In this document: piece after piece, positions 10,688-31,098 of the stretch
Layout: each line of letters opens with the position of its first letter
How positions within the stretch are numbered: the first letter of the stretch is position 1
DNA from: Alphaproteobacteria bacterium
GTDB lineage: Bacteria; Pseudomonadota; Alphaproteobacteria; SP197
Direction: 5' to 3'
Length of the DNA: 64,000 nucleotides
NCBI GenBank assembly: GCA_965228895.1
Contig: OZ245842.1
Location: forward strand, 544,001 to 608,000
The notes under the pieces: model-generated
Told to the model about the DNA's origin: nothing
Seen by the model: only the letters and a program-made list of their open reading frames with translations
Databases searched by the model: none
Made by a program: the position numbers and the translations under genes

Positions 10688-12037
10688 TTGGCCGAAGGCG
10701 CTGGGGTCACCCGTGCGCTTGCCCGCTGGGTCGTCGACGTCGAGCGTGACGCGATCAGCGAACGCGCGTTGCGTTGCGCCAGCCATGCGCTCCTCGACTG
10801 GGTCGGGGTCACGCTCGCAGGACAGGCGGAACCACTCGTGGACATCCTGGTGCGCGACGCCGAGCGTAACGGCGAGCAGGGTGTCGCCCGTCTTATCGGA
10901 CGCCGTGCCGATGTTTCGCCGGCCTTTGCCGCACTGATCAACGGTGCGGCTTCCCATGCGCTCGACTTCGATGATGTCAATCAGCGTGTTCAGGGCCATC
11001 CCACCGTGGCGATTGTCCCGGCGCTCTTGGCGGCCGCGCCAGCTTGCGGGGCGACGGGCGCTGACCTTCTTGAGGGTATGGTGGTTGGGACTGAAGTCGC
11101 CTGCGCCGTGGGCGAGATGCTGGGGACGCCGCATTACGACCTCGGTTTTCATGCCACGGCCACGGTCGGAAGTTTGAGCGCAGCGACGGCTGTCGCAAGA
11201 CTGATGCGTCTGGACGAAGTCCAGACGGCAACCGCGTTGGGGCTTGCCGCGACGCAGGCAGCCGGTTTGAAGGCGAACTTCGGCACCATGGCCAAGCCGC
11301 TTCACGCCGGTAAGGCCGCGATGAATGGTTTGCTTGCGGCGCGCTGGGCTGGCGCGGGGCTCACTGCTTCGACGACAATTCTTGAAGCCGTACAGGGATT
11401 TGGCGCGGTCATGTCGACCGGCTTCAACGCCGATTTCTCGCCACCGTCGGATCAGTACGGTATCGAGCTCAACTGCTACAAGTTCTATCCAGCCTGTTAC
11501 TTCACCCACTCGGCCATCGCGGCGACCTGCGCCTTACGTGACGAACACGCGTTGTCTCCAGACGATATCGACAACGTTGTGGTTCATCTGCAGCCCCAGC
11601 ACGACAAGGTCTGTAATATTGCCGAGCCGAAGGACGGGCTGGGCATCAAGTTTTCCGTGCGCCATCTGGTGGCGATGGCCCTTGCGCGGGTCGAGGTCGG
11701 CGATATCCGCGTGTTCACCGAAGAGATGGCCGAACGTCCCGACCTCATTGCCTTGCGTGAACGGATCGCCTTCGCGGCTGCGTCGGTTCCGACCCGGTGG
11801 GCGGCGCGGGTCGAGATCCAATGTCGCGATGGACGCCGGCTCGCAAGCGATGAGGACGTGGGCATTCCTGCCGACGATCTCGATCGTCAGGAGGCGCGGC
11901 TGCTCGCCAAGTTCCTCGCTCTATCGGCGCCGAAGCTCGGAGAACAACGCAGTCATGCGCTAGCGGATTTTGTTCTTGGCATGGGCTCAGCCGCCGACAT
12001 GACCGGCCTGTTCAATGCCGCAAGTCCCGGCGACTGA
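10688..12037 (+). CDS. MmgE/PrpD family protein (start uncertain; TTG chosen)
   Basis: NGAASHALDFDD, GHP, GFHAT, KPLHAG, KFYPACYFTH. Confidence 0.85.
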   Translation: MAEGAGVTRALARWVVDVERDAISERALRCASHALLDWVGVTLAGQAEPLVDILVRDAERNGEQGVARLIGRRADVSPAFAALINGAASHALDFDDVNQRVQGHPTVAIVPALLAAAPACGATGADLLEGMVVGTEVACAVGEMLGTPHYDLGFHATATVGSLSAATAVARLMRLDEVQTATALGLAATQAAGLKANFGTMAKPLHAGKAAMNGLLAARWAGAGLTASTTILEAVQGFGAVMSTGFNADFSPPSDQYGIELNCYKFYPACYFTHSAIAATCALRDEHALSPDDIDNVVVHLQPQHDKVCNIAEPKDGLGIKFSVRHLVAMALARVEVGDIRVFTEEMAERPDLIALRERIAFAAASVPTRWAARVEIQCRDGRRLASDEDVGIPADDLDRQEARLLAKFLALSAPKLGEQRSHALADFVLGMGSAADMTGLFNAASPGD

Positions 12038-16156: not shown

Positions 16157-17023
16157 ATGGAGACTGCCGTGACCACCTACAGGAAGCCCGAGCACTGGAA
16201 AGATCCGACCAAGAAGCTCTATCCACATCAGGTCATGTTCACCTGTCCGCCCAAGGATTTTTGTGGTGCGCCCACGGACTTCCTGCGTATGGCGCCCGAG
16301 ACCGTCGGCGTACACGGACGCATGATGCACGTGAACGATTACGAACACACGCTCGACCAGCGAAAGAAGAACTTCGCGTTGCTGGAAGAGTTCGTCGCGT
16401 GTTCCGCCGACGCGGGTGCTGATGTCTGCGGCCAGGTCGGCTCCAACTGGGTCCACGCCTCGGGTCTGGGGGTTGAGGGTATCCGGCAATTCTGCGAGCG
16501 GATGAGCGAAACATACGAGACGCCGTTTCACATGTCGGGCTACGCCATGGTGGAGGCCTTGCGCGCAGCGAACGTCGAGAAGGTCGCGTTGAACGCGGTC
16601 TATCACTGGCCGGACTGGTGGCAGGGTACGGTGGGATTTCTGCGCGAGGCCGGCTTTGACGTCGTGTGGGCCGGCAACTTCGTCGACCAGGGTTGGTTTG
16701 CGAGCCAGCACGAACTCGATGCTGAGATCTGGTGCTTCGATGAGGAACTTGCGGCGAAGTCGATGGCGTATGTCGCCGAACAGGCGCCCCAGGCCGACGC
16801 CTATCTCGCCAACGGTACGGCTCACTTTCGTCGCCCGTCCGATGGTGTCACCCAACGCTTCTGCGCTCTTGCACCCGACCTTGAGGTCATGCTGGGCAAA
16901 CCCGTCATCACCCACGACATCGCGCTCTATTGGCGCATCTTCAAGACGCTCGGCGTCGGTCCGGTGACCAGACAGGGACGGCTGCTGTCATCGCTTCAGG
17001 CCGTGCGCTCCTCGGCGGCCTGA
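16157..17023 (+). CDS. Maleate isomerase/arylmalonate decarboxylase (Asp/Glu racemase) superfamily protein, divergent
   Basis: MAPETVGVHGRM, AMVEALRAANVEKVAL, FLREAGFDV, LEVMLGKPVITHD. Confidence 0.7.
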   Translation: METAVTTYRKPEHWKDPTKKLYPHQVMFTCPPKDFCGAPTDFLRMAPETVGVHGRMMHVNDYEHTLDQRKKNFALLEEFVACSADAGADVCGQVGSNWVHASGLGVEGIRQFCERMSETYETPFHMSGYAMVEALRAANVEKVALNAVYHWPDWWQGTVGFLREAGFDVVWAGNFVDQGWFASQHELDAEIWCFDEELAAKSMAYVAEQAPQADAYLANGTAHFRRPSDGVTQRFCALAPDLEVMLGKPVITHDIALYWRIFKTLGVGPVTRQGRLLSSLQAVRSSAA

Positions 17024-17076
17024 TGCCGTCGTGGTTCATCCACGAACCAAAGTAACGGCGGGCCTGGAGTAGGGGC

Positions 17077-17727
17077 ATGGCGCAAAGGGTCGATGTCTAT
17101 TGGTCGCACAACTCCCCCTATTGTTATCTGGCACTCGATCGGATTCTGGCGCTAAGCCGGCAGCCGGACGTTGACGTGGTCTTGCGTCTGGTCCTGCCGG
17201 GTCTAATGCGCAACGCCGACCGCTTCGTCGATGCCGAGCCGGTCGAAGAAGCCTACTTTCTGCGCGACGCCGCGCGCACGGCGGCGTTTCTGGGTGTTCC
17301 GTTCGGCTGGCCGCAGCCATGGCCTGTGGCATTTCTGGATGGAAATCTGTACCGCGCGGCGCCCGACCAGCCGCGTGCCTGGCGTCTCTACAATCTCAAT
17401 GCCGCCGCCCGGGAACAGGGCAGGGGCTGGGGTTTCATCGAACATGTGAGTCCGTTGATCTGGAACGGCCTGACCGAGGACTGGAACAAGGATGAGAACC
17501 TGGTCCCAGCGGTCGAGCGCGCGGGCTTCGATTACGCCGAACTTTGCCGGCGGGCCGATGAAGGAGCGGCGCAGTTCAAGCGCGACTTCGCCAGAAACCA
17601 CGAGGACCTGCTTGTGGCCGGTCATTGGGGCGTCCCGGTCTTCGTCGTCGATGGTGAACCGTTCTATGGCCAGGACCGTTTCGATCAGCTCTTGTGGCGC
17701 TTGGATCAATCAGCCGCGAGGCAGTGA
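17077..17727 (+). CDS. 2-hydroxychromene-2-carboxylate isomerase / GST-kappa (DsbA-like) protein
   Basis: YWSHNSPYCYLA and GHWGVPVFVVDGEPFYGQDR motifs. Confidence 0.85.
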   Translation: MAQRVDVYWSHNSPYCYLALDRILALSRQPDVDVVLRLVLPGLMRNADRFVDAEPVEEAYFLRDAARTAAFLGVPFGWPQPWPVAFLDGNLYRAAPDQPRAWRLYNLNAAAREQGRGWGFIEHVSPLIWNGLTEDWNKDENLVPAVERAGFDYAELCRRADEGAAQFKRDFARNHEDLLVAGHWGVPVFVVDGEPFYGQDRFDQLLWRLDQSAARQ

Positions 17728-17854
17728 TCGATTTGTCGTGAGACGTAGCGCGATCAGAATGCCGATGCGATAGGGTACAGCCTGTCAACAGGGAAATCGC
17801 GGCACAGACAAGCTCGCTCGAGACTGCCCGCACCACCACTTTCCACAATGCAGA

Positions 17855-18217
17855 TTATGTGGGGGTTTTCTTGGGCTGTGTGTTGTTGCGTGCTCTGTTT
17901 GTGTCTGCCAGCTCATCAATCGCCATGCCTTTCCACAACGGTACGCCGGTGCGATACGCGGCGCGCGCGATCATGTGTGCGGCGACCGGAGCCGTCAGCA
18001 GAAGGAAGACGATGGCGGCGATGGCGCGGGCGACGATACCGGTCTCGCCAAAGTGGACGGCGACGGCGACGAGGATAAGGCCACAGCCCAGCGTTCCCGC
18101 CTTGGTCGAGGCATGCATGCGGATCAGGACATCCGGCAGGCGAAGCACGCCGAGCGCGGCTGCGAAAGCGAAGAGGCCTCCGGCGATGACCAGCACCGAC
18201 GTGATGATATCGATCAT
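17855..18217 (-). CDS. mrpG: Mrp Na+/H+ antiporter subunit G
   Basis: GVLRLPDVLIRMHASTKAGTLG, TAPVAAH. Confidence 0.93.
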   Translation of the reverse strand: MIDIITSVLVIAGGLFAFAAALGVLRLPDVLIRMHASTKAGTLGCGLILVAVAVHFGETGIVARAIAAIVFLLLTAPVAAHMIARAAYRTGVPLWKGMAIDELADTNRARNNTQPKKTPT

Positions 18218-18528
18218 GGCTGATCGCCAGCCTTGTCGAAAGGCATGTCGTCGCGCGCGCGTCGGCGTTCGGCGAACCGGGCGAAGGCGACCGTGGCGAG
18301 AAAAGCGATCAGGGCCAGCGCAATGGCGACGTCGAGATAGGCGGGCTCGCCTGACGCAATTGCAAAAAGCGCGCTGAAAGCGACCGCCAGGACAGTCACG
18401 AGGTCAAGTGCGACAACACGATCGGGCAGGCTTGGCCCCCGCGCCATACGCAGCACCGCAAGCACGATTGCCGCGATCAGAAGGGCAAAGGCGATGTCGG
18501 TCGCCGTGGTGAGAATGGGAGAGGTCAT
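18214..18528 (-). CDS. mrpF: Mrp antiporter subunit F
   Basis: RGPSLPDRVVALD, FLATVAFARF. Confidence 0.93.
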   Translation of the reverse strand: MTSPILTTATDIAFALLIAAIVLAVLRMARGPSLPDRVVALDLVTVLAVAFSALFAIASGEPAYLDVAIALALIAFLATVAFARFAERRRARDDMPFDKAGDQP

Positions 18529-18533
18529 GATCC

Positions 18534-19007
18534 TTACTCCAAAGCCGCGAGCACACGTTGCTCGATGCCTCGCTTGAGTTCGTCACGCAGGACCTGCGGG
18601 TCGTCGACGAACATGGCATGGACGTAGAGGGTCTTGCGGTCTTCCGAGATGTCCAGGCTCAGACTACCGGGCGTCAGAGATATCAGGTTGGCAATCATCA
18701 GGATTTCGCCGTCCCGTGTGGCGTCGAGCGGCAACGCGATGATGCCGGGCCGGCTCCTGTGGGTCGGCGTCAAGACGTCCCAAACCACGCGCAAACTGGA
18801 GACAAAGAGCTCATAGATGAACAGGAGCGCGAGACGGATGACCCGCCACACACGCTCGAAATAGCTGGTGTCACCAAACATGGGCTTGGCGGTCCAAAGC
18901 GCGAGGTAACCGACGACGTAACCGATGAGCAGATTGGACAGCGTAAAGCTCCCGGTCAGTGCGGCCCAGCCGAGTGCAAGCGCGGCGTTCAAGGCAAAGA
19001 GGTTCAT
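18534..19007 (-). CDS. mrpE: Mrp antiporter subunit E
   Basis: [17 protein letters not shown]. Confidence 0.93.
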
Positions 19008-20506
19008 GGTGAGCCACCCAGGACGGCGTTGACGTAAGCATCGGGGTTAAGCAGTTGTGCCGCCGAGCGTTCGGCAAACGTGACGAACGGCTCAGGGAAA
19101 AAGCCGATGACCAGGGTCAAGGCGGCGAGCGTGGCGATCGGCGCCAGCAGCTTGATACGATCGCCGGCGTTGAGCATGGTCAGCTTCGGCGACGGGCCTT
19201 CTGGCTGGGGTTTCCAGAACGCCTCGGCCCAGATCTTGGTCATCGAATAGACGGTCAGCAGCCCGACAACCAGGGCAGCGGCTGCGACAACATAGGCGCC
19301 GATGTCGAGGCTCGCCTTGACCAACAGGAACTTGGCCCAGAAGCCTGAGAGCGGCGGAAAGCCGGCAAGCGACAGGGCGGGTATCAGGAACAGAACGGCA
19401 AGCAGGGGGCTTGATTTATAGAGACCGCCCATGTTGTCGAGGTCGAAGCCGTGCGTCAGCCGCTTCGCGACGCCGCTGACCAGAAACAGGTTGGCTTTCA
19501 CGATGATGTGGTGGACCAGGTAGAAGACCGCACCGATCAGGGCGAGCGGCGTAAAGAGCGCCAAACCGAGCACCATGTAGCCGATCTGACTGACGATGTG
19601 GAACGACAGGATCTTGCGGAACTCGTTCTGGGCGGCCGCACCGAGCACGCCGGTGATCATGGTCAAGACGGCGACGACCAACAACAGATCGTGCGTGTAG
19701 TCGGTGTCTGTTGTGAACACCAGGGTAAACATGCGGATCAGGGCGTAGACGCCAACCTTGGTCAAGAGACCGGCAAAGATCGCCGAAACCGCCACCGGCG
19801 GCGTGTGATAGGACGCCGGCAGCCAGAAAAAGAGCGGGAACACCGCGGCCTTGATGCCGAACGCGACAAGGAACAAGACGGCAATGACAGTGACCAGTGC
19901 CTGGTTCTCGACGTCCCCGATGGCGCGGTGCAGATCCGCCATGTTGAGCGTGCCGGTGATGCCGTAGAGCAACCCGATGCCGGTGAGGAACATGGCGGTC
20001 GACACCAGATTGAGGACGACGTACTTGATACCGCCATCAAGCTGCGCCTTGCTGCCGCCCAAAACCAGCAGACCAAACGAGGCGATCAGCATGACCTCGA
20101 ACCAGACATAGAGGTTGAACAGGTCGCCGGTGACAAAGGCGCCGCAGACGCCGGCCAGCAGGACCTGGAACAGCGCGTGGTAACCCAAGGCCTCACGCCG
20201 GGTGTCAATGTCCGCCAGCGCATAGACCGCGACGGCCAACCCGGTGATCGCGGTGATCAGCACCATGACCGCGCTCAAGAGATCGGCGACTAGGGTGATG
20301 CCGAACGGCGCGGGCCAATTGCCCATTTGCGCGGCAATGACGCCGTCTTGCCAGACTGCGATGAACAGCGCGATCGCCACGGCCAGCAGAGCCAGGCAGC
20401 CGCCAATGCTGAGCCAGCGTCCGGCCGCGCCGCGATTGCGGAACAAGAAGACGAGCACGGCGGTCACCAGCGGCAGCATGACGGGCAGCGCGAGAAGCCA
20501 ACTCAT
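19004..20506 (-). CDS. mrpD: Mrp antiporter subunit D
   Basis: [39 protein letters not shown]. Confidence 0.95.
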
Positions 20507-20877
20507 GGGTTCTTGTCCTGCCGATCCGTTTCTGGTTCGGCCACCCGCATACGATCGCCGTCGAGCGTACCGAGCGCACTATAGCTGCGATAGACCAGCA
20601 CAAGCGCGAAGGCGAACAGGCCAAAGCCGATGACGATCGCGGTCAAGACCAAGGCTTGGGGTAGCGCGTTGGCGACCATCTCAGGCGGCGCCGAGAGACC
20701 TTCCGCGATCAGGGGCGGCACCGCGGGCGTCAGGCGTCCGGCGGCAAAGATCGTCAGGTTGGCGGCGTTGCTCAGCAAGACCAGCCCAAACAAAAACCGC
20801 AACACGTTGCGGGCGAGCATCAGATAGACGCTTGCCGCCACCAGAATCCCGACCAGGAGCGCCAGAATCGCTTCCAT
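20503..20877 (-). CDS. mrpC: Mrp antiporter subunit C
   Basis: [14 protein letters not shown]. Confidence 0.95.
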
Positions 20878-20879
20878 GG

Positions 20880-21302
20880 TCAGGCTTCCTCCTCAAGCGC
20901 CAGGACCAGGGTCAGCACGGCGCCGATGACGGCCAGGTAGACGCCGATGTCGAACAGCAAGACCGTGCTGAGCGCCAGACCTTTGGCGCCGTCGCTGCTG
21001 TTACCGAAAATCCACCACTGTCCGGTGAACAGCGGTTCGCCGGTCAGTGCGGGCACCATCCCAGCGACGATAGAGAGGCCAAGGCCGACCATGGCGATGA
21101 CGCGCGGGTCGGCGCGCAGCGCACGGCGTGCCGAACCGGCGCCGTGCGCAATGCCATAGAGAATGAAGCCGATCGACGCGATCAGACCGCCAATGAAGCC
21201 GCCGCCCGGATCGTTGTGGCCGCGCAACAGCATGTAGACCGAGAAAAGCAGCATCAGCGCAACGAGAAGCCGCGTTGCCGTGTTCAAGATCAGCGAATTC
21301 AT
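20880..21302 (-). CDS. mrpB: Mrp antiporter subunit B (separate from A; group 1 organisation)
   Basis: [20 protein letters not shown]. Confidence 0.93.
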
Positions 21303-23599
21303 CGCGTACCTCTTGCTCTGACGCCGCGCAGCACGGCAAAGGCGCCAAGGGCCGCGACCGCGACAACCACAATTTCACCGAACGTATCGAGTGCGCGGAA
21401 ATCGACGAGGATCACGTTGACGATGTTGCGGCCATAGGCGTCAGGCACGCTGGCAGCCTCGTAATAGGCGGTTACCGACAGGTCGAGGGGACCTTCGGAG
21501 ACGGCAAGCAAGGTCAGCGCGACAACGGCGCCGACCGTGAGCGCCAGAGCACCATCTTTCCAGCGGCAGCGCTTCAAGACGTCGCGCTCGAGCAGAGGCA
21601 GTCGCAGCATGGCAACGGCGACCAAGACGACGACCAGCGTCTCGACCAAGAGCTGTGTCATCGCCACGTCCGGCGCACCGAACATGACGAAGAAGAGAGC
21701 AACGCCGATCCCGACAATACCGAGTGCGCAGATGGCCGTGAGGCGCGACCGGGCGAACGCTGCCATGATGGCGCCGGTCGCGATCAGAACGACGACAGCG
21801 CCGTGCTTGAACAAGATATCCGGCCACGCGGCTGGCCAGCGCACGGCGCCAGTCGCGACAAGCGTAAGGCCAACAGCCAGCGCGAAGCTGGCGAAGATTA
21901 CGAACAGATAGTGCCTGAGGACACCGTGCTGCAGGAACCGTGTCTGTGTCTTGGCGACCAGCTTGAGACCGTCGAGACAGGCGTCCCACGCTCTATCTGC
22001 GGTGACCGGCAAGGCTGTTTCGAGACGGATCAAGAAGGCGCGTAACGTTTGGTGGAAGACATAGATCAGGACGCCGACGGCAAATGTCAGCACGCTTAAG
22101 AGAAGCGGCAGGTTGATGCCGTGCCACAGCTTCAGATTGATGGTTTCCGGCCGGCCGAGAACGGCGGTAACGGCCGGCTGCACCAGGCTTTCGGCAATCA
22201 GCGCCGGCGCCAGGCCGAAGGTGAGGCCAAGAACGGCCAGAAGCAGCGGTCCGATCCACATCCTGAAGGGCGGGTCATGTGGTGTTCCGGCTGTCGGCAT
22301 CGTGGCGCCAAAGAATGGCCTGAGTGCGATGACACCGGCCATGGCGACCATGAGCATGTTCGCGGCGATGGCGGCGGAGGTGACGAAGGCCGGCTCGGCG
22401 GCGATGGCAAGCGCACCTTCGTACTTCAGCTCCTTGCCGATGAAACCCAGAAACGGCGGGAATCCGGCCATGGATAGCGCGGCGGCCACGGCGGCCAGGG
22501 CCGTGATCGGCATCAGTGAGGCCAGGCCGCGCAGCCGATCGGTCTCGCGCGTGCCGGTCTGATGATCGATGACGCCGACTACGAGGAACAGCGAGGCTTT
22601 ATAGAGTGAATGGACGATCAGAAACGTCATGGCGGCGGCGACGGCGACGGTCGCATCGGCGCCCAGAAACATGGTGAGGGTGCCAAGCGCCATGACCGTG
22701 GTGTAGGCGAGTGCCAGCTTCAGATCGGTCTGACGCAAGGCAATGACCGATGCAATCACGGCGGTCAGGGCGCCGACAATGGTCAATGTCCACATCCAGG
22801 CGTCCGTGCCGCTCATCGCCGGATGCATACGTGCCAAGAGGTAGATGCCCGCCTTGACCATGGTTGCGGAGTGCAGATAGGCGCTGACCGGTGTCGGCGC
22901 GGCCATGGCGTTGGGCAGCCAGAAGTGGAAGGGAAACTGTGCCGACTTGGTGAAGGCGGCCGCGAGGATCAGAACGAGGATCGGCAGATAGAGATCATGG
23001 GCGCGAATCACGTCGCCCATGGTCAGGATCTCGGAGAGCTCATAACTCCCCGCGACATTGCCCAACAAGATGAAACCGGCCAGCAGCGCCAGGCCGCCGG
23101 CACCGGTCAGAAGCAAGGCCTGCAGGGCCGCGCGCCGCGCCTTGGCCGAGGCATGGTCGAAACCGATCAGAAGGTACGAGGTGACCGTTGTGAGTTCCCA
23201 GAACACAAACAGCGTGATCAGGTTGTCGGCAAGCACCAGACCGAGCATCGCGACCATGAACATCAGAAGAAAAAGAACGAACCGGCCGAATTGGGCGTGG
23301 CCGGCCATGGAGGCGCCGGCATAGAGCGCGACAAGTGTTCCGATGCCGCTGATCAGAAGCGCAAATGTCAGGCTAAGGCCATCAATCAGAAAGGACGCGC
23401 TAACGCCTAGGCTGGGTACCCAGTCGTGAGCAACCCGGATCGTGCTGCCATCTGCGATCGCGGGTAGGCATGCCGCAAACACGGCCGTCAGCAAGGCAGG
23501 CGGAACCGCACAGAGCCAGCCGAGCGCGGCGCCCTTTGGCGCCGTTCGCGGCGGGCAGGCCTCTTCGTGCCGGTCGATATGCGGACCGCTGCTGGTCAT
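21299..23599 (-). CDS. mrpA: Mrp antiporter subunit A
   Basis: [60 protein letters not shown]. Confidence 0.95.
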
Positions 23600-23833
23600 G
23601 CCTGTTGGCAATCCTGTTGGCGTTGATGAGAGGGCGACGGCGGTGAAGCAATGACATGATATCAGTCACGGCGTGGGCGGGCGAGAGCGTGCTCGGTTGC
23701 GAACACCGGACACCTTGCCGAAGCGCGGCGCCCCCGCTGAAACGCGGAGGACGCCGCACCCCGCGACACTCGGCCATGTACCGGAGGGAATACACGGTCT
23801 CCCGTCAGGGCTGGATCGGTGTCGAATGGACGG

Positions 23834-24052
23834 TCACGCGTTGAGATGCCGGGCTTGTGCGGGCGGGTTGACCAGTATGGCGCCCATCAGTCTTTCCCAA
23901 GCGTCCATCTCGTCCTTGATCGCCAGCTTTTCGCGTTTGAGTTGCTGTAGGACCAAGGCATCGGGCAGGGGCCGGTTCTGCTCGGCAGTGATTCGACTCT
24001 CGATGGCGCCATGGCGTTCTTTCAAGACACTGTAGCGGGTGTTGGTGGACAT
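23834..24052 (-). CDS. DUF465/YdcH family small coiled-coil protein
   Basis: LKERHGAIESRI..E..RPLPD...QLKREKLAIKDEM; AGGAG upstream. Confidence 0.85.
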   Translation of the reverse strand: MSTNTRYSVLKERHGAIESRITAEQNRPLPDALVLQQLKREKLAIKDEMDAWERLMGAILVNPPAQARHLNA

Positions 24053-24320
24053 TGCCGTTTTCCTATCTCCTGTGATGCGGATCAGCCGCGCACCGCTAGG
24101 TGGCGGTCACAAGCCGGTGCTTGTCGTTGCTGGTCGTCAGTTCGGTGAGGCGGTCGAAGAGCGGTCCGCTGTCGTTGCCCGTTGCGCTGTTGACCGCCGC
24201 CGTCGTGGGCTCGTCCAAGACCTCTGTCGCCTCGCTAATGCCGTCGTGTTCGAGGCTTCGCCAAACGACGCCAGTGTCTCACTCCGCCGCAACCGGCACC
24301 CGATCAACATCGCTGACATG

Positions 24321-24388
24321 GAGATGCGGTGCCACACATGATTGTTCCAATCATGATTTTGATGACGTTTGATAGGAAAGCCCTATCA
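24321..24388 (-). promoter_or_regulatory. OxyR-type operator TGATAGGAAAGCCCTATCA (24370-24388) with adjoining promoter for DUF465-mrp
   Basis: 7-5-7 palindrome with ATAG-N7-CTAT core; the downstream GATTGGAACAAT and CATCTC blocks recur at the usp promoter with identical spacing. Confidence 0.7.
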
Positions 24389-24519
24389 TCAAATCATTGG
24401 GGGCTCCGAGACCAACTGCCGGGAACGCCGGCGGGCGCTGTACTATCCAGGTCGACAGTTTTCCTGAAAGGCCCGTGCGCCATAGGCGAAATGGCGGCCG
24501 GCCGACAGTCTTCGGCCTG

Positions 24520-25521
24520 TCACGATGCGGTGGAGGCCTGGTCACTGTAGGCGGATGTCGCCGCGTCAAGCTGGACAGGTGAAACGAAACCCGGCGGTTT
24601 CACGGCGAGAACCGAGCACGCGACCTGGTTCAGGATGGTTTCGGCGGTGTTGCCGATGATCAGACCCTGGATGCCGGTTCGCGCCACCGTTCCCATGACA
24701 ATCAACTCAACACGCTTGCGCTCGGCAAACTCCGGGACGGCCTTGCGCGCGATGCCCTTGCTCAAATGCACCTGGCGCCGCCCGTCGCTGTCGGGGAACC
24801 GCTGCAGCAACTGGTCGAGCTCGACGGCGCTTCGCCGACGTTTTTCCTCAACCAGCATATCCACCTCTTCCGACGCGACGCGCGCGAATCCGCTGTTACG
24901 CAGCATGTCCTCGCCGTCCAGGTTCCAGACATGGATGACATGCAGCTCACTCTCATCGGCCCGCGACAGTGATGTCGCCAGTTCCATGATCGTTGTGTTG
25001 AGTGCGCTCCGCTGCTCGTCCTCTGGATCGGGATCGACGGCGGCAAGAATGCGGGCGTAATGGTGACGATCATTGCGGCGCATGAGCCACACCGGGCAGG
25101 GACATTTTCGCAGCAGATGCAGGTCGGTGCTTGCGAAGAAGAGCGAACCTGCTTCCCATTCTCCCGCGGCACCCTTGATCACGAGGTCATGGCCGTCGCG
25201 CAGAACCTTGCTGATGACTTCGACGAACGGGATCCCCTGCACGACAAACTCGGACGTCGCCACGCCGGCTTCGTTGATCGTTTCTGCGATGCGCCCAACG
25301 TGGGCATGATGAAACTCCTGCACTTCGTGCTCGACGTCGTGCTCGCGCATACCGCGCACGGCGCGGAACAGTTTGCCGAGTTCGCCGGGAGCGGTTTCGA
25401 TCACGTCGATCAAGGTGAGGTGGGCATCGTTGGACTTGGCCAACGTTATGGCGCGTGCAACGGCCGTCTTGTTGATGCTGCGGATATCGCACACCAACAG
25501 AATGTTCCGGAACCTCTTCAT
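24520..25521 (-). CDS. Tandem-domain universal stress protein (UspE-like)
   Basis: DLHLLRKCPCPVW, LIVMGTVARTGIQGLIIGNTAETIL...VLAVKP. Confidence 0.92.
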   Translation of the reverse strand: MKRFRNILLVCDIRSINKTAVARAITLAKSNDAHLTLIDVIETAPGELGKLFRAVRGMREHDVEHEVQEFHHAHVGRIAETINEAGVATSEFVVQGIPFVEVISKVLRDGHDLVIKGAAGEWEAGSLFFASTDLHLLRKCPCPVWLMRRNDRHHYARILAAVDPDPEDEQRSALNTTIMELATSLSRADESELHVIHVWNLDGEDMLRNSGFARVASEEVDMLVEEKRRRSAVELDQLLQRFPDSDGRRQVHLSKGIARKAVPEFAERKRVELIVMGTVARTGIQGLIIGNTAETILNQVACSVLAVKPPGFVSPVQLDAATSAYSDQASTAS

Positions 25522-25601
25522 GCCTCAGCCCCACACGTGCGTGATCGTTTTTGGGTAGGCCTGGCGGTGGCCAGATTGCGCCGCCGCCGGCGTTCTGATG
25601 T

Positions 25602-25667
25602 GAGATGGGCTTGAAAAGCTCATTGCTCCAATCGAAGTTAATGGGGATTTCGATAGTTTCCGCCATT
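25602..25667 (-). promoter_or_regulatory. Degenerate OxyR-type site (ATAG-N7-CATT) and promoter for usp, divergent from the regulator
   Basis: Same CTAT-N19-GATTGGA(A/G)CAAT-N14-CATCTC architecture as 24321-24375. Confidence 0.6.
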
Positions 25668-25699
25668 CAACGATGTCAGACACATCAGGAGTAACCGCC

Positions 25700-26620
25700 T
25701 TGCCAACCTTGCAGCAGCTTCGCTATCTGGTCGCCGTTGCCGACACGCTCCATTTTCGCCGCGCCGCGGAAATGACACACGTCACGCAACCGACATTGAG
25801 CGGTCAGCTTCGCGAGCTCGAGAACAAGCTTGGCGTTCAGTTGGTGGAGCGCAGCCGCGCGAAGGTCATCCTGACTCCGGTCGGCGCGGAGATTGCGGCG
25901 CGTGGTCGAACCGTCCTGCGTGACGTGCAGGATATCGTCGAATTGGCCACACACGGCCATAGCCTGCTCGACGGGACCATTCGCGTCGGCGTTCTGCAGT
26001 CGCTAGGCCCTTACTTTCTGCCGCATATCGTGCCGGATCTTCATCAAAGTTATCCCGACCTGAAGCTCTACGTTCGCGAAGGTATGCCGCAAGCGCTGCT
26101 GAGCGGCATCGATGACGGCAGCTTCGATCTGCTGTTCTTCCCGTTGCCGGTCAAGGGCGCTGACCTCCACACGACGCGGCTGTTTCGTGAGCCCTTGTGG
26201 ATCGTGATGCCGCGGGATCATCACTTGGCGAGCAAAAAGACCATCGATCGATCGGATCTGAAAGACCAAACCGTCCTGACGCTGGAGCGTGGCCATCGTC
26301 TGCACGACCAGGTACAGGAACTTTGCGAGCAGTACCGTGCCAACGTGTCGATGGATTATGAGGGCACCAGTCTGGACACGCTGCGCCAAATGGTCGGCAT
26401 GGGCATGGGGTTGTCGTTTTTACCGGCACTCTACGTCCGGTCGGAGGTTTTGCAGGACGATCAGGTCGTCGTGCGCCAACTGCGCAGCCGCTCGCCGTCG
26501 CGCATGGTCGGCATGGTGTGGCGCCGGCACTCGGCGCGCCAGGATGAGTTCGTTACGCTTGCCGGTTTCGTTCGCGGCGTCATGAAGAGCCGTGTTCCCG
26601 ACCTGACGATCGTTTCGTAG
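25700..26620 (+). CDS. OxyR-like LysR regulator lacking the peroxidatic cysteine
   Basis: LHFRRAAEMTHVTQPTLSGQ, GPYFLP, GHRLHDQVQELC (OxyR: GHCLRDQ....C), GTSLDTLRQMV; TTG start after AGGAG. Confidence 0.85.
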   Translation: MPTLQQLRYLVAVADTLHFRRAAEMTHVTQPTLSGQLRELENKLGVQLVERSRAKVILTPVGAEIAARGRTVLRDVQDIVELATHGHSLLDGTIRVGVLQSLGPYFLPHIVPDLHQSYPDLKLYVREGMPQALLSGIDDGSFDLLFFPLPVKGADLHTTRLFREPLWIVMPRDHHLASKKTIDRSDLKDQTVLTLERGHRLHDQVQELCEQYRANVSMDYEGTSLDTLRQMVGMGMGLSFLPALYVRSEVLQDDQVVVRQLRSRSPSRMVGMVWRRHSARQDEFVTLAGFVRGVMKSRVPDLTIVS

Positions 26621-26667
26621 CGTTGCGTCGGCCAAGTGTCGCGGCGCATGATCGGCGCGGCACAACC

Positions 26668-26709
26668 TGATAGGAAGATCCTATCATCGTCGGCATTGCA
26701 CCCATCAAT
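26668..26709 (+). promoter_or_regulatory. OxyR-type operator TGATAGGAAGATCCTATCA plus secondary ATTG-N7-CAAT box upstream of atpB
   Basis: 7-5-7 palindrome, 16/19 identical to 24370-24388. Confidence 0.7.
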
Positions 26710-26772
26710 GCCCACCAACATCTCCTGACGCGAAACATAGCCCACCTTTGCGCATCGGACAGGAGAAGAGGT

Positions 26773-27540
26773 ATGGCTTCCGGCGAGCAGGAAGCGCCAT
26801 ACGCCATAACGCAGTTCGAGATCGACTACCTCGTGCCGATCAATCTGTTCGGCATCGACATGTCGTTCACGACGTCGGCGCAGGCGATGGTGACGACGAC
26901 CCTCCTGGTCAGCGTTTACCTGATCTATGGCATCCGCCAGCGCTCGCTTGTGCCTGGCCGTCTGCAGTCAAGCGTCGAGGCGGTTTATACGTTTGTCGCG
27001 AACACGGTCACGAAAACCGCCGGGCCGCAGGCTGAATCAGCAATACCCTTCGTCTTTTCCCTGTTCGTGTTCATCCTGTTCGGCAGTCTGTTCGGCCTGA
27101 CGCCGGTCAAGTTCACCTTCACGAGCCACCTGGTTGTCACCCTTGCACTGGCGCTTGTCGTCTTTGCCTATGTCAACACGCTTGCGGTGCGCACGCAGGG
27201 TGCCGGTGTCTTTCGTATGTTCTTGCCGGCCGGTACGCCGCTCTACATGGCGCCGCTGATCGTTGTGATCGAGGTGATCTCCTATCTGTTCCGGCCGATC
27301 ACGTTGGGTGTCCGCATCTTTGCCAACATCCTGGCCGGCCATATCATGATCAAACTCTTCGCCGACTTCAGCGTCATGCTGACGGAAGGTTTGGGACTTG
27401 CCGGTATGGCCCTTGCGCTGCTGCCGGTTGCGATGATGGCCGTGCTTTACGGCTTCGAGGTCATGATCTTCCTGGTCCAGGCCTACATCTTCATCCTCAT
27501 TACCTCACTCTACATTCGCGATGCGTTGCATGCGCACTAG
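26773..27540 (+). CDS. atpB: F0 ATP synthase subunit a (orphan copy)
   Basis: VPGRLQS, RPITLGVRIFANILAGH with the essential Arg, FEV..FLVQAYIF. Confidence 0.93.
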   Translation: MASGEQEAPYAITQFEIDYLVPINLFGIDMSFTTSAQAMVTTTLLVSVYLIYGIRQRSLVPGRLQSSVEAVYTFVANTVTKTAGPQAESAIPFVFSLFVFILFGSLFGLTPVKFTFTSHLVVTLALALVVFAYVNTLAVRTQGAGVFRMFLPAGTPLYMAPLIVVIEVISYLFRPITLGVRIFANILAGHIMIKLFADFSVMLTEGLGLAGMALALLPVAMMAVLYGFEVMIFLVQAYIFILITSLYIRDALHAH

Positions 27541-27579
27541 CGCATAGCGACGCCAACACCACGGAAAGGACGTTACGAC

Positions 27580-27807
27580 ATGACGGACGACGGCATCAGA
27601 CTGCTTGCGGCTGCCCTTGCATTGCTGCCGCTCTTTGGCGTCGCGCTCGCGTTGGGCAAGATCTTCTCTGATTGGATTTCCTCCGTCGCACGCAATCCCG
27701 GTGCTGGCGAGAAAGTCCAGCCGGTGGGATTGCTCGGTTTCGCACTGACCGAAGCGATTGCGCTCTTTGCACTGATTGTCTCGTTCATCATCCTGTTCGT
27801 GGGGTGA
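27580..27807 (+). CDS. atpE: F0 ATP synthase subunit c (orphan copy)
   Basis: Two TM helices, ARNP loop, FALTEAIALF with ion-binding Glu; AAGGA RBS. Confidence 0.93.
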   Translation: MTDDGIRLLAAALALLPLFGVALALGKIFSDWISSVARNPGAGEKVQPVGLLGFALTEAIALFALIVSFIILFVG

Positions 27808-28145
27808 CATTTCTGTAGGCATGACGTGAAGATCGTTTCGCGACAAGACCGACTTGTGAACCGCCCATGCCGTCGAATCGGCTGAAACGCCGATCTCGCT
27901 TTCCATAATGCTTATGGGGCTGACCTTCCCACACATCCGGTTCTGACCTGACACGGACTTGGGCAACGGTTCCCTGCTAATTTGGCAGAAAGAATGACAA
28001 ATTTGTGGCCGGTGATTACCATGCTGCCTCTGTCCTGGGAGACAGTACGGCAATTGGTCGGCCTCCCTTGACTGGTTCAATGTTAGCGCGAGTGCATGGC
28101 CGGCCCGTTGATCCCGTTCATAACGATGAATAGGAGGAGGTAACC

Positions 28146-29267
28146 ATGACAACACGCGATCCCGTAGACCAACTTCTGTCTGGTCGAATGGACCGGCGCA
28201 CGCTCAGCAAGACGCTCGGCTCGCTTGGCATCGGCGTTGCAGCCATGCCACTCGTAACACAGGAAGTACGGGCCGAAGAGGAGGAGGCCAACTTCTTCAC
28301 CTGGGCTGGTTATGAGAACCCAATGTTCCATCAGACCTATATTGACAAATATGGTGTCTCGCCCAACGTCACGTTCTTCGGTGGCACCACCGAAGCCAAG
28401 AACAAGATTCTTGCCGGGTACAAGACCGACATTGGTCACCCCTGTTCGGGCGGTGTTACGGAGTGGTATGCGTCCGGCATTATCGTCCCGTTCGATACCG
28501 GCCGGATGAAGTTCTGGAATGACTACTTTGAGCCTCTCAGGAACATCAACTCAACCCTGACGCCGGAAGGCGATCATCTGTTTGTTCCGTGGGACTGGGG
28601 CAATTCATCGATCCTCTACCGCACCGATCTCGTGGAGATCGAGGAAGAATCCTGGGGCCTGCTGTTTGACGAGCGGTACAAGGGCAAGCTTGCGACCTAC
28701 GATTCACCGCAGGCCGGTGTGCAAGTCGCCGCTCAGGTCCTCGGCTTTACGAACCTCGAATCCCTGAGCGACGAGCAACTCGCTGAAGTCAGGACGCTCT
28801 TGGAAAAGCAGCGTTCGCTTTTGCGGTTCTATTGGGAGAGCCAGTCCGAGGCCGGTCAGGCCATGGTCGCCGGCGAGTTGGTTGCGACCTACGCCTGGAA
28901 CGATCTCTACAAGACGGTGACCGATGCGGGGATCCCTGTGACCTATATGTCGCCTAAAGAAGGCGCGCGCAACTGGGTTTGCGGCTTCGTGCTGACCGCC
29001 CCGGAGAACCGGGTTGCCAGCGACGAGCGTGTCTACGACTTCCTCGACGCCATGATGTCGCCGGAAGCCGGCGCCTTCTTGATCGACGAGTACAGCTACG
29101 GCGCAGCCAACAGCAAGTCCTTTGACCTGGTTCCGCCCGAGCGCGTTGCGGAGGTCGGTCTGTCCGATCCCGAAGCCTTCTTGGCGAAGGGCATCCTGCA
29201 GCCCATACCGCCCGAATACGACGAGAAGTACGTCAATCTCTGGGAAGAGGTGAAACTCGGCATGTAG
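28146..29267 (+). CDS. PotD/PotF-like ABC substrate-binding protein with Tat-like signal
   Basis: MDRRTL, FTWAGYE, PWDWG, SWGLLFD, PKEG. Confidence 0.85.
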   Translation: MTTRDPVDQLLSGRMDRRTLSKTLGSLGIGVAAMPLVTQEVRAEEEEANFFTWAGYENPMFHQTYIDKYGVSPNVTFFGGTTEAKNKILAGYKTDIGHPCSGGVTEWYASGIIVPFDTGRMKFWNDYFEPLRNINSTLTPEGDHLFVPWDWGNSSILYRTDLVEIEEESWGLLFDERYKGKLATYDSPQAGVQVAAQVLGFTNLESLSDEQLAEVRTLLEKQRSLLRFYWESQSEAGQAMVAGELVATYAWNDLYKTVTDAGIPVTYMSPKEGARNWVCGFVLTAPENRVASDERVYDFLDAMMSPEAGAFLIDEYSYGAANSKSFDLVPPERVAEVGLSDPEAFLAKGILQPIPPEYDEKYVNLWEEVKLGM

Positions 29268-29367
29268 CGCCGATGTTGTACACACTGCCGGGCGTGCGCA
29301 GAGCGGGTCCGGCGGTGTGTGCCGTTCCAAATCGCAATGACGTCGTTCAACGCCGTTTGCCTGTCGA

Positions 29368-31098
29368 TCATCGACCGATAGCGTAGGCGTCCCGTCGCGG
29401 GTCGGCACCGCCGGTGAGCAGACTGGTCTCAGGATCGACCGTGATGGCCGACATCACGCCCATATCCATGGGTTCCCAATCTTCGACCCGGCGAACGTCG
29501 TGTCCCCTGTTCGAGAGTTCATCGGTCACATCCGTCTCAATGCGGCTCTCGACGTGCAGACGGCCCGGCAGATAATCGTGCGGCCAGAAGGAGTCGGGGA
29601 AACTCCAGGTCGTGAACCGTGGCGCCTCGATGGCGGTCTGGGCGTTCATGCCGAACACGGCGATGTTCAGGAACGTCTGGACCATGGCCTGGCACTGGGC
29701 ATCGCCACCGGGACAACCAAACGGCATGAACAGCTTGCCGTCTTTGAACGCCATGGCGGGGTTGGGTGTCAGTCGAGGCCGCTTCCAAGGCTCGAGCTTC
29801 GACGCGTGGTTTTCGTCGAGCCACGTCTGCGTGCCCCGACCGGAGAGACTGAAACCGAGTTCCGGCACGATGGGTGCGCGTGTGTTCGCATCGCTCGGCG
29901 TGGCCGAGAAGGCGTTTCCCCAGCGATCGACGACACAGGTGTAGCTGGTATCGGTTTCGCGTTCGCGAAAGCTCTGCCCTGAGCGCGGTTCCGGTCGACC
30001 CCACGGCGTCATGTCGTTAATGAGGCCTGGGGCCGGCATCTCTCCGAACGCCTGGTGCATGTCTATCTGCCCACGTCGGCTGCGTGTGTATTCCGGCGTC
30101 ATCAAAGCGTCCATCGGCACGTCGACCATGTCGGGATCGCCGAAGTAATAGTCCCGATCGGAGAAGCTCAGGTTCATGGCTTCGGACAGCAGATGAATGT
30201 AGTCCGCGCTGTTGTGTCCGAGCGCGGCGAGGTCGTCATGCTCCAGCATCTGCAGGGTCTGCGGCACGACCGGCCCCTGACACCAGGGCCCGCAGGCAAA
30301 GATCTCGTAGTCATGAAAGGTGCCGCGCACATGGGGCTCTTCCTTGACCGAAAAGTCACGAAAGTCCTCCAGCCTGAGCAGGCCGCCTTGTTCTTCGCTG
30401 TAACGCGCCATCTCCTGGGCGATGTCGCCGCGATAGAATTCGTCCCGGGCGGCCCGAATAGCCGCCTCGCGGCCTTGCGCCGCATGCTTGCGCTCGACAT
30501 CGATCAACCGTTCGAAGGTGCGCGCCAGCGCCGGCTGGACGATGAGTGTGCCTGCCGGAGGCACCTCTCCGTCGCGCAAGTATGTCTCCCGGTTGGCGGG
30601 CCAACGGCTGATGGCGTCAACTTCGCCCACGAGCTGGTTGCGCACGACCGTTGAGAGGGCGTAGCCGTCCCACGCTATTTCCAGCGCCGGTGTCAGGACT
30701 TCTTCCAACGTCATGGTGCCGTAGTTTTGCAGCGCGGTGAGCCATGCATCGGGTGCTGCCGGCACCACCGCACGGCGGATGTCCGCGGGCAAGTCGCCTG
30801 CGCAGTTGTCCTTGAAAAACGCGATGCTCGCTGCCTTCGGCCAGCGGCCGAGCCCGCTGATCGTGGTCACGGCGCGACGGTCAGCGAGGTAGATCATGAT
30901 GGGCGCGACGCCGCCGAAGTTCGTGTTGTCGCCCAGCACCACGTTGATCACGATGCCGGAGGCGACACCCGCATCCACCGCGTTGCCGCCTTGCTCCAGC
31001 AACCGGTAACCCGCCGCTGCCGACAACGGATGGCCCGAACTGATAACATGGTGCGTGCCCATGACCGGCGGGCGATGCGAACCATAGGTCGTTGTCAT
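29368..31098 (-). CDS. Gamma-glutamyltransferase family Ntn-hydrolase
   Basis: GGNAVDA, FYRGDIA, DTSYTCVVD (nucleophile Thr), KRPRLTPNP, GADPRRD. Confidence 0.9.
   Translation of the reverse strand: MTTTYGSHRPPVMGTHHVISSGHPLSAAAGYRLLEQGGNAVDAGVASGIVINVVLGDNTNFGGVAPIMIYLADRRAVTTISGLGRWPKAASIAFFKDNCAGDLPADIRRAVVPAAPDAWLTALQNYGTMTLEEVLTPALEIAWDGYALSTVVRNQLVGEVDAISRWPANRETYLRDGEVPPAGTLIVQPALARTFERLIDVERKHAAQGREAAIRAARDEFYRGDIAQEMARYSEEQGGLLRLEDFRDFSVKEEPHVRGTFHDYEIFACGPWCQGPVVPQTLQMLEHDDLAALGHNSADYIHLLSEAMNLSFSDRDYYFGDPDMVDVPMDALMTPEYTRSRRGQIDMHQAFGEMPAPGLINDMTPWGRPEPRSGQSFRERETDTSYTCVVDRWGNAFSATPSDANTRAPIVPELGFSLSGRGTQTWLDENHASKLEPWKRPRLTPNPAMAFKDGKLFMPFGCPGGDAQCQAMVQTFLNIAVFGMNAQTAIEAPRFTTWSFPDSFWPHDYLPGRLHVESRIETDVTDELSNRGHDVRRVEDWEPMDMGVMSAITVDPETSLLTGGADPRRDAYAIGR

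Follow-up and report, generated by a model that had tools for sequence, protein, structure and literature searches.

A candidate Na+/H+ homeostasis regulon with a spare pair of Fo subunit genes around an OxyR paralogue that lacks the peroxidatic cysteine

Why would a bacterium with a complete set of ATP synthase genes keep a second copy of two of them, those for subunits a and c of the membrane part Fo, beside an OxyR-like regulator and the operon of a cation/H+ antiporter? The question is raised by a stretch of 64,000 nucleotides, here called the window, which is C1:544001-608000 of the single-contig genome (5.53 Mb; 5,528,408 bases) of an alphaproteobacterium. Genes were assigned from a listing of open reading frames (ORFs) and from Pfam and NCBIfam family scans of the window proteins. 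On the minus strand lie mrpGFEDCBA, a gene for a small DUF465 protein and a tandem universal stress protein (Usp) gene; on the plus strand an OxyR-like LysR-type gene is followed by atpB and atpE alone (hereafter atpB2 and atpE2, encoding a2 and c2). The family scans agree on this layout with an earlier reading of the same DNA, made from the letters alone (the sequence-only reading), which had proposed that one non-redox regulator controls all of these genes. The evidence below supports a distinct OxyR paralogue with a conserved operator, at the centre of a putative regulon to which the spare pair is a rare addition.

An OxyR paralogue and its operators

The regulator has the domains of a LysR-type protein, HTH_1 (PF00126, 73.7 bits, residues 13-71) and LysR_substrate (PF03466, 169 bits, residues 98-303), and also the typical setting of one, with usp divergent from it and palindromic sites of the T-N11-A type both in the spacer that the two genes share and close to the promoters of the targets. 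The best of its 50 NCBIfam matches is the OxyR model NF008361, yet the score of 240.2 bits is below the cut-off of 329. It is 38% identical to E. coli OxyR over 293 residues (E 1e-72) and matches a solved OxyR structure (PDB ID: 4x6g) over its full length (E 6.6e-61). When aligned to the OxyR proteins of P. aeruginosa and E. coli, it has arginine at position 199 and cysteine at position 208, the latter being its sole cysteine, and it reads GHR...C where OxyR has GHC199...C208. Residues T100, T129 and H130 of E. coli OxyR, which we take to line the peroxide pocket, align with S, P and Q.

To place the regulator among its relatives we scanned one genome per species and obtained 80 loci (L007-L086; 1.35 Mb in all) with regulator homologues at 47-91% identity. 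The nearest belong to marine Kiloniellales/Pelagibius-like alphaproteobacteria, and Pelagibius litoralis DSM 21314 has the same locus (L011), so a cultured carrier seems to be available. Among these homologues position 199 is R (39), H (27), Q (11), F (2) or K (1), and it is Cys in 0 of the 80, which bears out the absence of a peroxidatic cysteine noted in the sequence-only reading. The resolving Cys208 is kept in 73 of the 80 and is A, S or T in the rest. A canonical two-cysteine OxyR (GHC...EAC) is encoded elsewhere in the genome, at C1:2.633 Mb, divergent from katG, and is 35% identical to the protein of the window. These alignments support the regulator being a distinct OxyR paralogue without the peroxidatic cysteine.

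The two palindromes that precede DUF465-mrp and atpB2 (operators 1 and 2, Table 1) agree at 16 of 19 bases. The sequence-only reading had described them as near-identical, and they also prove to be peculiar to this locus, for TGATAG-N7-CTATCA occurs exactly twice genome-wide, at operators 1 and 2, as do ATAGG-N5-CCTAT and TGATAGG-N5-CCTATCA; the looser ATAG-N7-CTAT is found 16 times (2.9 per Mb). The degenerate copy it had seen before usp is present, with a score of 2.6 as against 24.7 and 20.6 for the two operators on a position weight matrix (PWM) that was built from the exact sites in loci L007-L086 and then scored on those loci and others. Where the window has this degenerate site, about 50 bp before the regulator gene, relatives have TTCGATAG-N7-CTTTCGAA, and judged by its position the site is an autoregulatory one.

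Across the related loci the operator motif is conserved, with most of its exact copies close to the regulator gene. Exact ATAG-N7-CTAT sites number 81 in the 80 loci, and 53 of them, in 48 loci, lie within 300 bp of the ends of the regulator gene, a density of 1.02 per kb compared to 0.021 per kb elsewhere in those loci (roughly 50-fold). The genes beside the regulator recur as well: when tblastn matches spanning less than half of the query are dropped, Mrp adjoins it in 25 of the 80 loci (18 of the 48 whose flanks each span at least 8 kb), usp has a homologue in 36, and DUF465 lies beside the regulator or the operator in 24. The conserved neighbourhood that the sequence-only reading expected is therefore found for mrp, usp and DUF465, but the link to atpBE was overstated, atpB2 being present in 9 of the 80 loci. 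The Mrp-linked loci include those of Rhodobacterales (Dinoroseobacter, Tropicimonas, Sagittula), where the regulator gene and mrpA diverge from a shared spacer that holds the palindrome.

We then clustered all ORFs of at least 60 residues that start from -150 to +350 bp of an exact site, leaving unannotated 97 singletons and many clusters that resemble spurious high-GC ORFs. The largest annotated clusters are the regulator itself (42 loci), Usp (18), DUF465 (13), NhaA (10) and MrpA (5), followed by Sbt_1 permeases, atpB2, an isocitrate dehydrogenase (IDH) of 512-524 residues and DUF533 (3 each), and by Na_Ca_ex, Fe-ADH and COX4_pro_2, a COX-IV-like small protein (2 each). A similar picture emerges in the source genome, where an IDH gene of the ICDH_alpha type (TIGR02924, 696 bits) has, about 105 bp upstream, the highest-scoring PWM site of the genome (34.8, C1:2681468). 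This second IDH region (C1:2679872-2681490) is separate from the housekeeping NADP-IDH gene (C1:1933679-1934881), and its family also adjoins the regulator in L025, L076 and L078. As the matrix was trained on related loci, this test within the source genome is not circular, and the regulon probably extends to this distant second IDH gene.

Two small genes were seen next to operators in relatives. In L022 and L025 (at about 10935-11300) a lone gene for a 72-residue protein of the aa3 cytochrome oxidase subunit IV family (PF07835) adjoins an operator just after the regulator gene, and in some relatives the regulon may include this further spare component of respiration. A conserved small ORF (L008:8612-8839, plus strand, and 14 other loci) lies in the gap between operator and usp, divergent from DUF465-mrp; its core of about 35 residues reads DYHDC...GHNSAEAH...WR, it has no Pfam match, and it is absent from the window.

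Further repeats and gene remnants were noted around the sites. At 24337-24355 a second inverted repeat, CATGATTG-TTC-CAATCATG, lies on the side of operator 1 that faces mrp, at a distance of 15 nt, and after operator 2, at 26692-26712, there is GGCATTG-N7-CAATGCC, an ATTG/CAAT repeat; both may serve in activation or bind another factor. The conserved box within the latter (26695..26705) looks like a degenerate half-site or an activation site over the -35 region. Two adjacent NhaA-family fragments at C1:500966-501529, about 43 kb ahead of the window, look like a broken second nhaA; one of the matches contains a TAA stop.

The second Fo pair and the layout of the locus

The complete housekeeping operon atpI-atpB-atpE-atpF'-atpF lies elsewhere in the genome (C1:151.4-153.9 kb). 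A single atpD gene (F1 beta) scores over the cut-off genome-wide, and b-type subunits are found only in the housekeeping operon, so the a and c genes of the window are indeed spare copies, as had been supposed from the sequence alone. The gene after atpE2 encodes a PotD-like solute-binding protein rather than atpF, and among the related loci that have downstream sequence no b, delta, atpI, F1 or other conserved gene follows atpE2.

The protein a2 is 43% identical to housekeeping a and keeps the essential arginine as well as the AGH, FE and Q.Y (channel) positions. Its partner c2, too diverged from housekeeping c for a tblastn match at 1e-4, keeps the RNP loop and the carboxylate (TEA); it scores 62 bits with the alphaproteobacterial equivalog NF005733, under the cut-off of 85, and is thus a diverged member of Fo subunit c. 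In helix 1 the c2 of the window has GVALALG compared to GVGVGIG in housekeeping c. Across 21 c2 sequences this motif is GxAxAxG in 17, AxAxAxG in 3 and GxAxGxG in 1, whereas housekeeping c has GxGxGxG in 27 out of 27. Between lineages whose regulators are 68-79% identical, c2 is 82-94% identical. For Bacillus pseudofirmus OF4, a review reports that alanine in the helix-1 motif of c gives a 13-mer ring, compared to 12 for the glycine mutant, and that larger c-rings are said to help at low proton-motive force (PMC4453477). As regards alkaliphile features, c2 sequences have alanine at 2-3 of the 4 helix-1 positions, and both the lysine at Arg+8 in a2 and the PxxExxP motif in c2 are absent.

Two other readings of c2 were considered and dropped. 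A Na+-coupled c has Gln in helix 1 and Ser or Thr after the carboxylate, and helix 1 of c2 instead contains ...LGK..., while its helix 2 contains ...TEAIALF..., where Glu is followed by Ala. A change from Tyr to Phe five residues past the carboxylate had seemed specific to c2 among genomes of the source's own order; the housekeeping c of one of the other genomes with a2 (G430) also has Phe.

In its distribution the pair is a rare, sporadic accessory member of the regulon. Within the GTDB order of the source it is present in 1 of 33 genomes, the source genome alone, and in a class-wide alphaproteobacterial sample in 1 of 400 other genomes. The a2 family nonetheless comprises at least 120 protein clusters at 58-100% identity, counted among the best 120 of 1077 matches, and when 16 loci were reached via atpB2 alone, 13 again had usp, mrp or the regulator nearby (tblastn coverage threshold 40%), the other 3 having little or no flank. 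A PWM site scoring above 12 lies about 83-107 bp before the start of atpB2 in 12 of 26 atpB2 loci, several of them near-identical, and L021, L033 and L126 have a variant, GATCG-N7-CGATC, at the operator position. Three complete genomes (G430, G431 and the source, G000) each have housekeeping a plus a2. Compared to the nearest relative (L007, 85% nucleotide identity), the window has a 2.67-kb indel at 26631-29305, which contains operator 2, atpB2, atpE2 and the PotD-like gene and in place of which L007 has about 106 bp.

Two observations concern rotary ATPase genes elsewhere in the genome. The region C1:4676469-4683762, with two weak matches to the atpD model and a 152-residue ORF with two ATP-synt_C domains, is a probable V/A-type ATPase cluster, which would be a third rotary-ATPase gene set in the cell. 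Approximately 115 bp upstream of housekeeping atpI, at C1:154021-154034, there is ATAG-N6-CTAT, one base short in its spacing, which may be a chance occurrence in an AT-rich promoter region.

The features of the locus are collected in Table 1. The antiporter operon is of the seven-gene Mrp (CPA3) kind, with mrpA to mrpG in order, MrpA and MrpD of the Proton_antipo_M type, and neighbouring genes that overlap by 4 bp or are 2-5 bp apart. The probable start of the regulator is a TTG at 25700 (306 residues), with AGGAG at 25687-25691, 8 nt upstream. A scan of 17000-30000 with Rfam at E values up to 1 gave 0 matches, and so no known riboswitch or leader. An ORF of 66 residues in the gap between operator 1 and DUF465 (24137-24337, minus strand) was rejected as a gene, having no Pfam or NCBIfam match and no tblastn match in the related loci.

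Table 1. Genes, operators and other elements of the locus (window positions).
Feature	Position	Strand	Basis and remarks
mrpGFEDCBA, seven-gene Mrp (CPA3) cation/H+ antiporter operon	17855..23611	-	Pfam/NCBIfam
mrpG	17855-18217	-	NF009314 139 bits, over cut-off
mrpF	18214-18528	-	Pfam/NCBIfam
mrpE	18534-19007	-	Pfam/NCBIfam
mrpD	19004-20506	-	NF009306 609 bits, over cut-off
mrpC	20503-20877	-	Pfam/NCBIfam
mrpB	20880-21302	-	Pfam/NCBIfam
mrpA	21299-23611	-	NF009287 1009 bits, cut-off 937; likely ATG at 23599
RNA hairpin, GC-rich, in DUF465/mrpA gap	23722..23760	-	RNA folding, alignment of relatives
DUF465 small protein, 72 residues, first gene downstream of operator 1	23834-24052	-	PF04325, 45 bits, E 9e-12
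Operator 1, TGATAGGAAAGCCCTATCA	24370-24388	.	PWM 24.7; 318 bp upstream of DUF465 start
Tandem universal stress protein, UspE-like, 333 residues, divergent from regulator gene	24520-25521	-	Pfam/NCBIfam
Degenerate operator, usp/lysR spacer	25651..25669	.	GATAG-TTTCCGC-CATTC core at 25652-25668; PWM 2.6
OxyR-paralogue LysR-type regulator, longest ORF 315 residues	25673-26620	+	NF008361, OxyR alignments
Operator 2, TGATAGGAAGATCCTATCA	26668-26686	.	PWM 20.6; centre 95 bp upstream of atpB2 ATG
Secondary conserved box (relatives: TTGnAATCG)	26695..26705	+	About 11 nt past operator 2; alignment of 12 atpB2 upstream regions
atpB2, second F-type Fo subunit a, 255 residues	26773-27540	+	NF004482 275 bits, cut-off 225
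atpE2, second Fo subunit c, 75 residues	27580-27807	+	Pfam/NCBIfam, c alignment

A model of the regulon and its alternatives

We propose that the OxyR-derived paralogue no longer senses peroxide and would activate transcription by binding TGATAG-N7-CTATCA, with the strong palindrome serving as a recognition site near -65 and a weaker half-site as an activation site over -35; the distance of about 95-105 bp from site centre to start codon at both atpB2 and the second IDH gene fits a site near -65. Four units would be under its control, namely DUF465 together with mrpABCDEFG (the latter by read-through of the hairpin between them), the two genes atpB2-atpE2, the regulator itself with the divergent usp via the weak site, and the distant second IDH. 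The products of atpB2 and atpE2 would assemble with the only F1 and b/b' of the cell into an alternative, H+-coupled Fo, in which the changes from Gly to Ala in the ring-packing motif probably enlarge the c-ring; with a larger ring, ATP could still be made at the reduced proton-motive force left by the running antiporters. Taken as a composite of paralogue, regulon and alternative Fo, we consider this explanation to stand slightly better than even. The link between regulator, operator and regulon is its strongest part and, from the motif and synteny comparisons, likely. In its fullest form the proposal is tentative and rather doubtful: under salt or alkaline stress the paralogue would induce a2 and c2, which would join the single F1 and b/b' and so change the c-ring stoichiometry and the H+/ATP ratio on demand, in step with Mrp and with spare isozymes (the second IDH and, in relatives, the COX-IV-like subunit).

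As to the signal, the content of the regulon across relatives (Mrp, NhaA, Sbt-type and Na/Ca transporters) suggests a role in cytoplasmic Na+/H+ homeostasis under salt or alkaline conditions, as NhaR has for nhaA, and going by these genes Na+ or alkali is a fairly probable theme. The regulator and its regulon could also be real but respond to energy, carbon, CO2/bicarbonate or general stress. This would account for the second IDH, the Sbt_1 permeases, Usp, DUF533, Fe-ADH and the COX-IV-like gene, and cyanobacterial LysR regulators do control bicarbonate uptake and Mrp-like genes; the regulator has a distant match to the structure of a cyanobacterial regulator (PDB ID: 5y2v; E 1e-24), and position 199 is so variable (R/H/Q/F/K) that no single sensing residue is evident. 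However, the commonest transporters beside the regulator, Mrp (25 loci) and NhaA (10 loci), are both Na+/H+ antiporters, and all named carriers are alphaproteobacteria of marine or saline habitats, which makes another signal unlikely.

A swap of a2 and c2 into the ATP synthase is somewhat less likely than not. The pair might instead never replace a and c, and act as an F1-free proton conduit that acidifies the cytoplasm, form mixed rings with housekeeping c, or titrate assembly factors. Consistent with this, the pair comes without b, delta or F1 genes in the loci with downstream sequence, and with a only 43% identical and c too diverged for tblastn, compatibility with b/b' and with gamma/epsilon is not assured. 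Yet c2 keeps the RNP loop, which is the rotor-stalk contact, a2 keeps its essential Arg and channel residues, and the cell has just one F1 and one b/b' set with which they could work. In E. coli, moreover, a and c without b reportedly do not conduct protons when Fo is reconstituted, and we regard these other roles as improbable.

It is very unlikely that the palindromes are ordinary boxes of the canonical two-cysteine OxyR, which would put mrp, usp and atpB2E2 in the peroxide regulon and leave the paralogue an incidental or modulating part. ATAG-N7-CTAT is the classical OxyR half-site pair, and the spacer between the canonical oxyR and katG carries a related site (PWM 17.6). Since the operator type is shared and the recognition helices are nearly identical, it is the position of the sites that points to the paralogue as the binding protein: they cluster at its gene in 48 of the 80 loci, including the autoregulatory position just upstream, and the two perfect sites of the genome flank the paralogue and not oxyR. 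In addition, no catalase, peroxiredoxin, Dps or other peroxide-defence gene is among the annotated operator-neighbour clusters. That atpB2-atpE2 is a decaying duplicate or a functionless, hitch-hiking insertion is hardly credible, for the pair is rare and sits in an indel but has intact frames, catalytic residues and a conserved operator/promoter architecture upstream, with c2 and the many a2 clusters well conserved across lineages.

Several observations weigh against the proposed regulon and Fo swap. The recognition helix of the paralogue, HVTQPTLSGQLRELE, is almost that of the canonical OxyR, HASQPALSGQLRKLE, and with operators of the classical type the latter could bind them too. The usp/lysR site is weak and lies in a divergent spacer of 151 bp, the intact nhaA of the genome (C1:262785-263906) has no operator in the PWM scan, and the PWM counts are partly circular, the training loci being among those scored, though the counts of exact patterns are not. 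IDH, DUF533, Fe-ADH and Usp do not point specifically to Na+ or pH. Neither the nearest relative (L007) nor either of the two genomes of the same genus has atpB2-atpE2, and the pair is thus dispensable to the regulon. In a2 the position of the alkaliphile lysine (Arg+8; PMC4453477) is Gly, the c2 of the window has only two of four alanines, and ring size is not readable from a sequence. One draft genome (G272, 90% complete) shows a2 only, with housekeeping a and b not found, which is probably an assembly gap.

Finally, the 39-nt GC hairpin that separates DUF465 from mrpA may stop transcription before mrp. In a fold of 91 nt it reaches -51 kcal/mol (z -3.6), with 0 of 200 shuffles folding as well, and of 13 aligned loci 8 have a hairpin in this position. 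In L020, L021 and L039 a T-run follows it; the copy in the window has no U-run. Its role may be that of an intercistronic attenuator, a terminator or a stabiliser of the mRNA. With this conserved hairpin in between, operator 1 could control mrp only if transcription reads through; the operator lies directly before mrpA in L011, L012 and the Rhodobacterales loci.

The regulation of Mrp antiporters is poorly known, and a conserved regulator defined by its operator in at least 80 marine alphaproteobacterial species would provide a handle on it. If the model is true, it shows clearly how a redox sensor can be put to non-redox sensing while its DNA motif is retained, and the pair would amount to a gear-shift that occurs in nature, under regulation, in a bacterial ATP synthase. 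The long-standing idea that c-ring size is tuned to proton-motive force would then be testable within one organism, with the same F1, two natural versions of Fo and one promoter switch.

Comparison with known systems

We found no description of an OxyR-like regulator of mrp or nhaA, or of a spare pair of a and c only, in the full-text literature searched (subscription journals and supplements lay outside the search), in line with the sequence-only reading, which knew of no characterised system of this composition. The parts do have known counterparts. The paralogue shares with the OxyR proteins of E. coli and P. aeruginosa homology over the full length, the order of HTH_1 and LysR_substrate, the ATAG-N7-CTAT operator type and Cys208. 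Unlike them it has Arg at 199, one cysteine in all and Pro-Gln for Thr129-His130, falls under the NF008361 cut-off, does not lie beside peroxide-defence genes, and coexists with a true OxyR-katG.

Among alkaliphiles, Bacillus pseudofirmus OF4 has a comparable replacement of Gly by Ala in the helix-1 packing motif of c. According to PMC4453477, the OF4 subunits are sole copies and constitutive, whereas the pair of the window is a second one under its own putative control. N-ATPases and duplicated whole atp operons, such as that of Photobacterium profundum SS9 (PMC10054830), are likewise second F-type ATPase gene sets used under particular conditions, but they are complete, with their own F1 and b, and the window has a and c only. 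Membership in the N-ATPases was rejected in any case, as the scores are far below the cut-offs (TIGR03306, 44 vs 302; TIGR03322, 26 vs 131) and the accompanying genes are missing. The closest likeness in principle is found in the cbb3 oxidases of P. aeruginosa, for which orphan ccoN/ccoQ clusters provide subunit isoforms. There, too, membrane-subunit isoforms that are separately encoded and regulated join a shared core, though the enzyme is a different one and for the window the swap is a proposal; we know of no such orphan-isoform case for a bacterial Fo a/c pair.

A functional parallel is NhaR of E. coli, which responds to Na+ and high pH (PMC6307784). In both cases a LysR-type regulator gene adjoins the Na+/H+ antiporter that it presumably activates, and NhaA itself occurs in 10 of the related loci. 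The paralogue is not orthologous, however, with 23% identity to E. coli NhaR over 133 residues (E 2e-5) confined to the HTH region, and it has another operator and a wider putative regulon (Mrp, Usp, DUF465, IDH and Fo a/c). HhmR of Halomonas was also considered as a related regulator and rejected, being an unrelated DarR-like regulator (PMC12421958). By analogy, then, the system of the window would do the work of NhaR-nhaA with an OxyR paralogue in place of NhaR, and it is neither an N-ATPase nor a duplicated atp operon.

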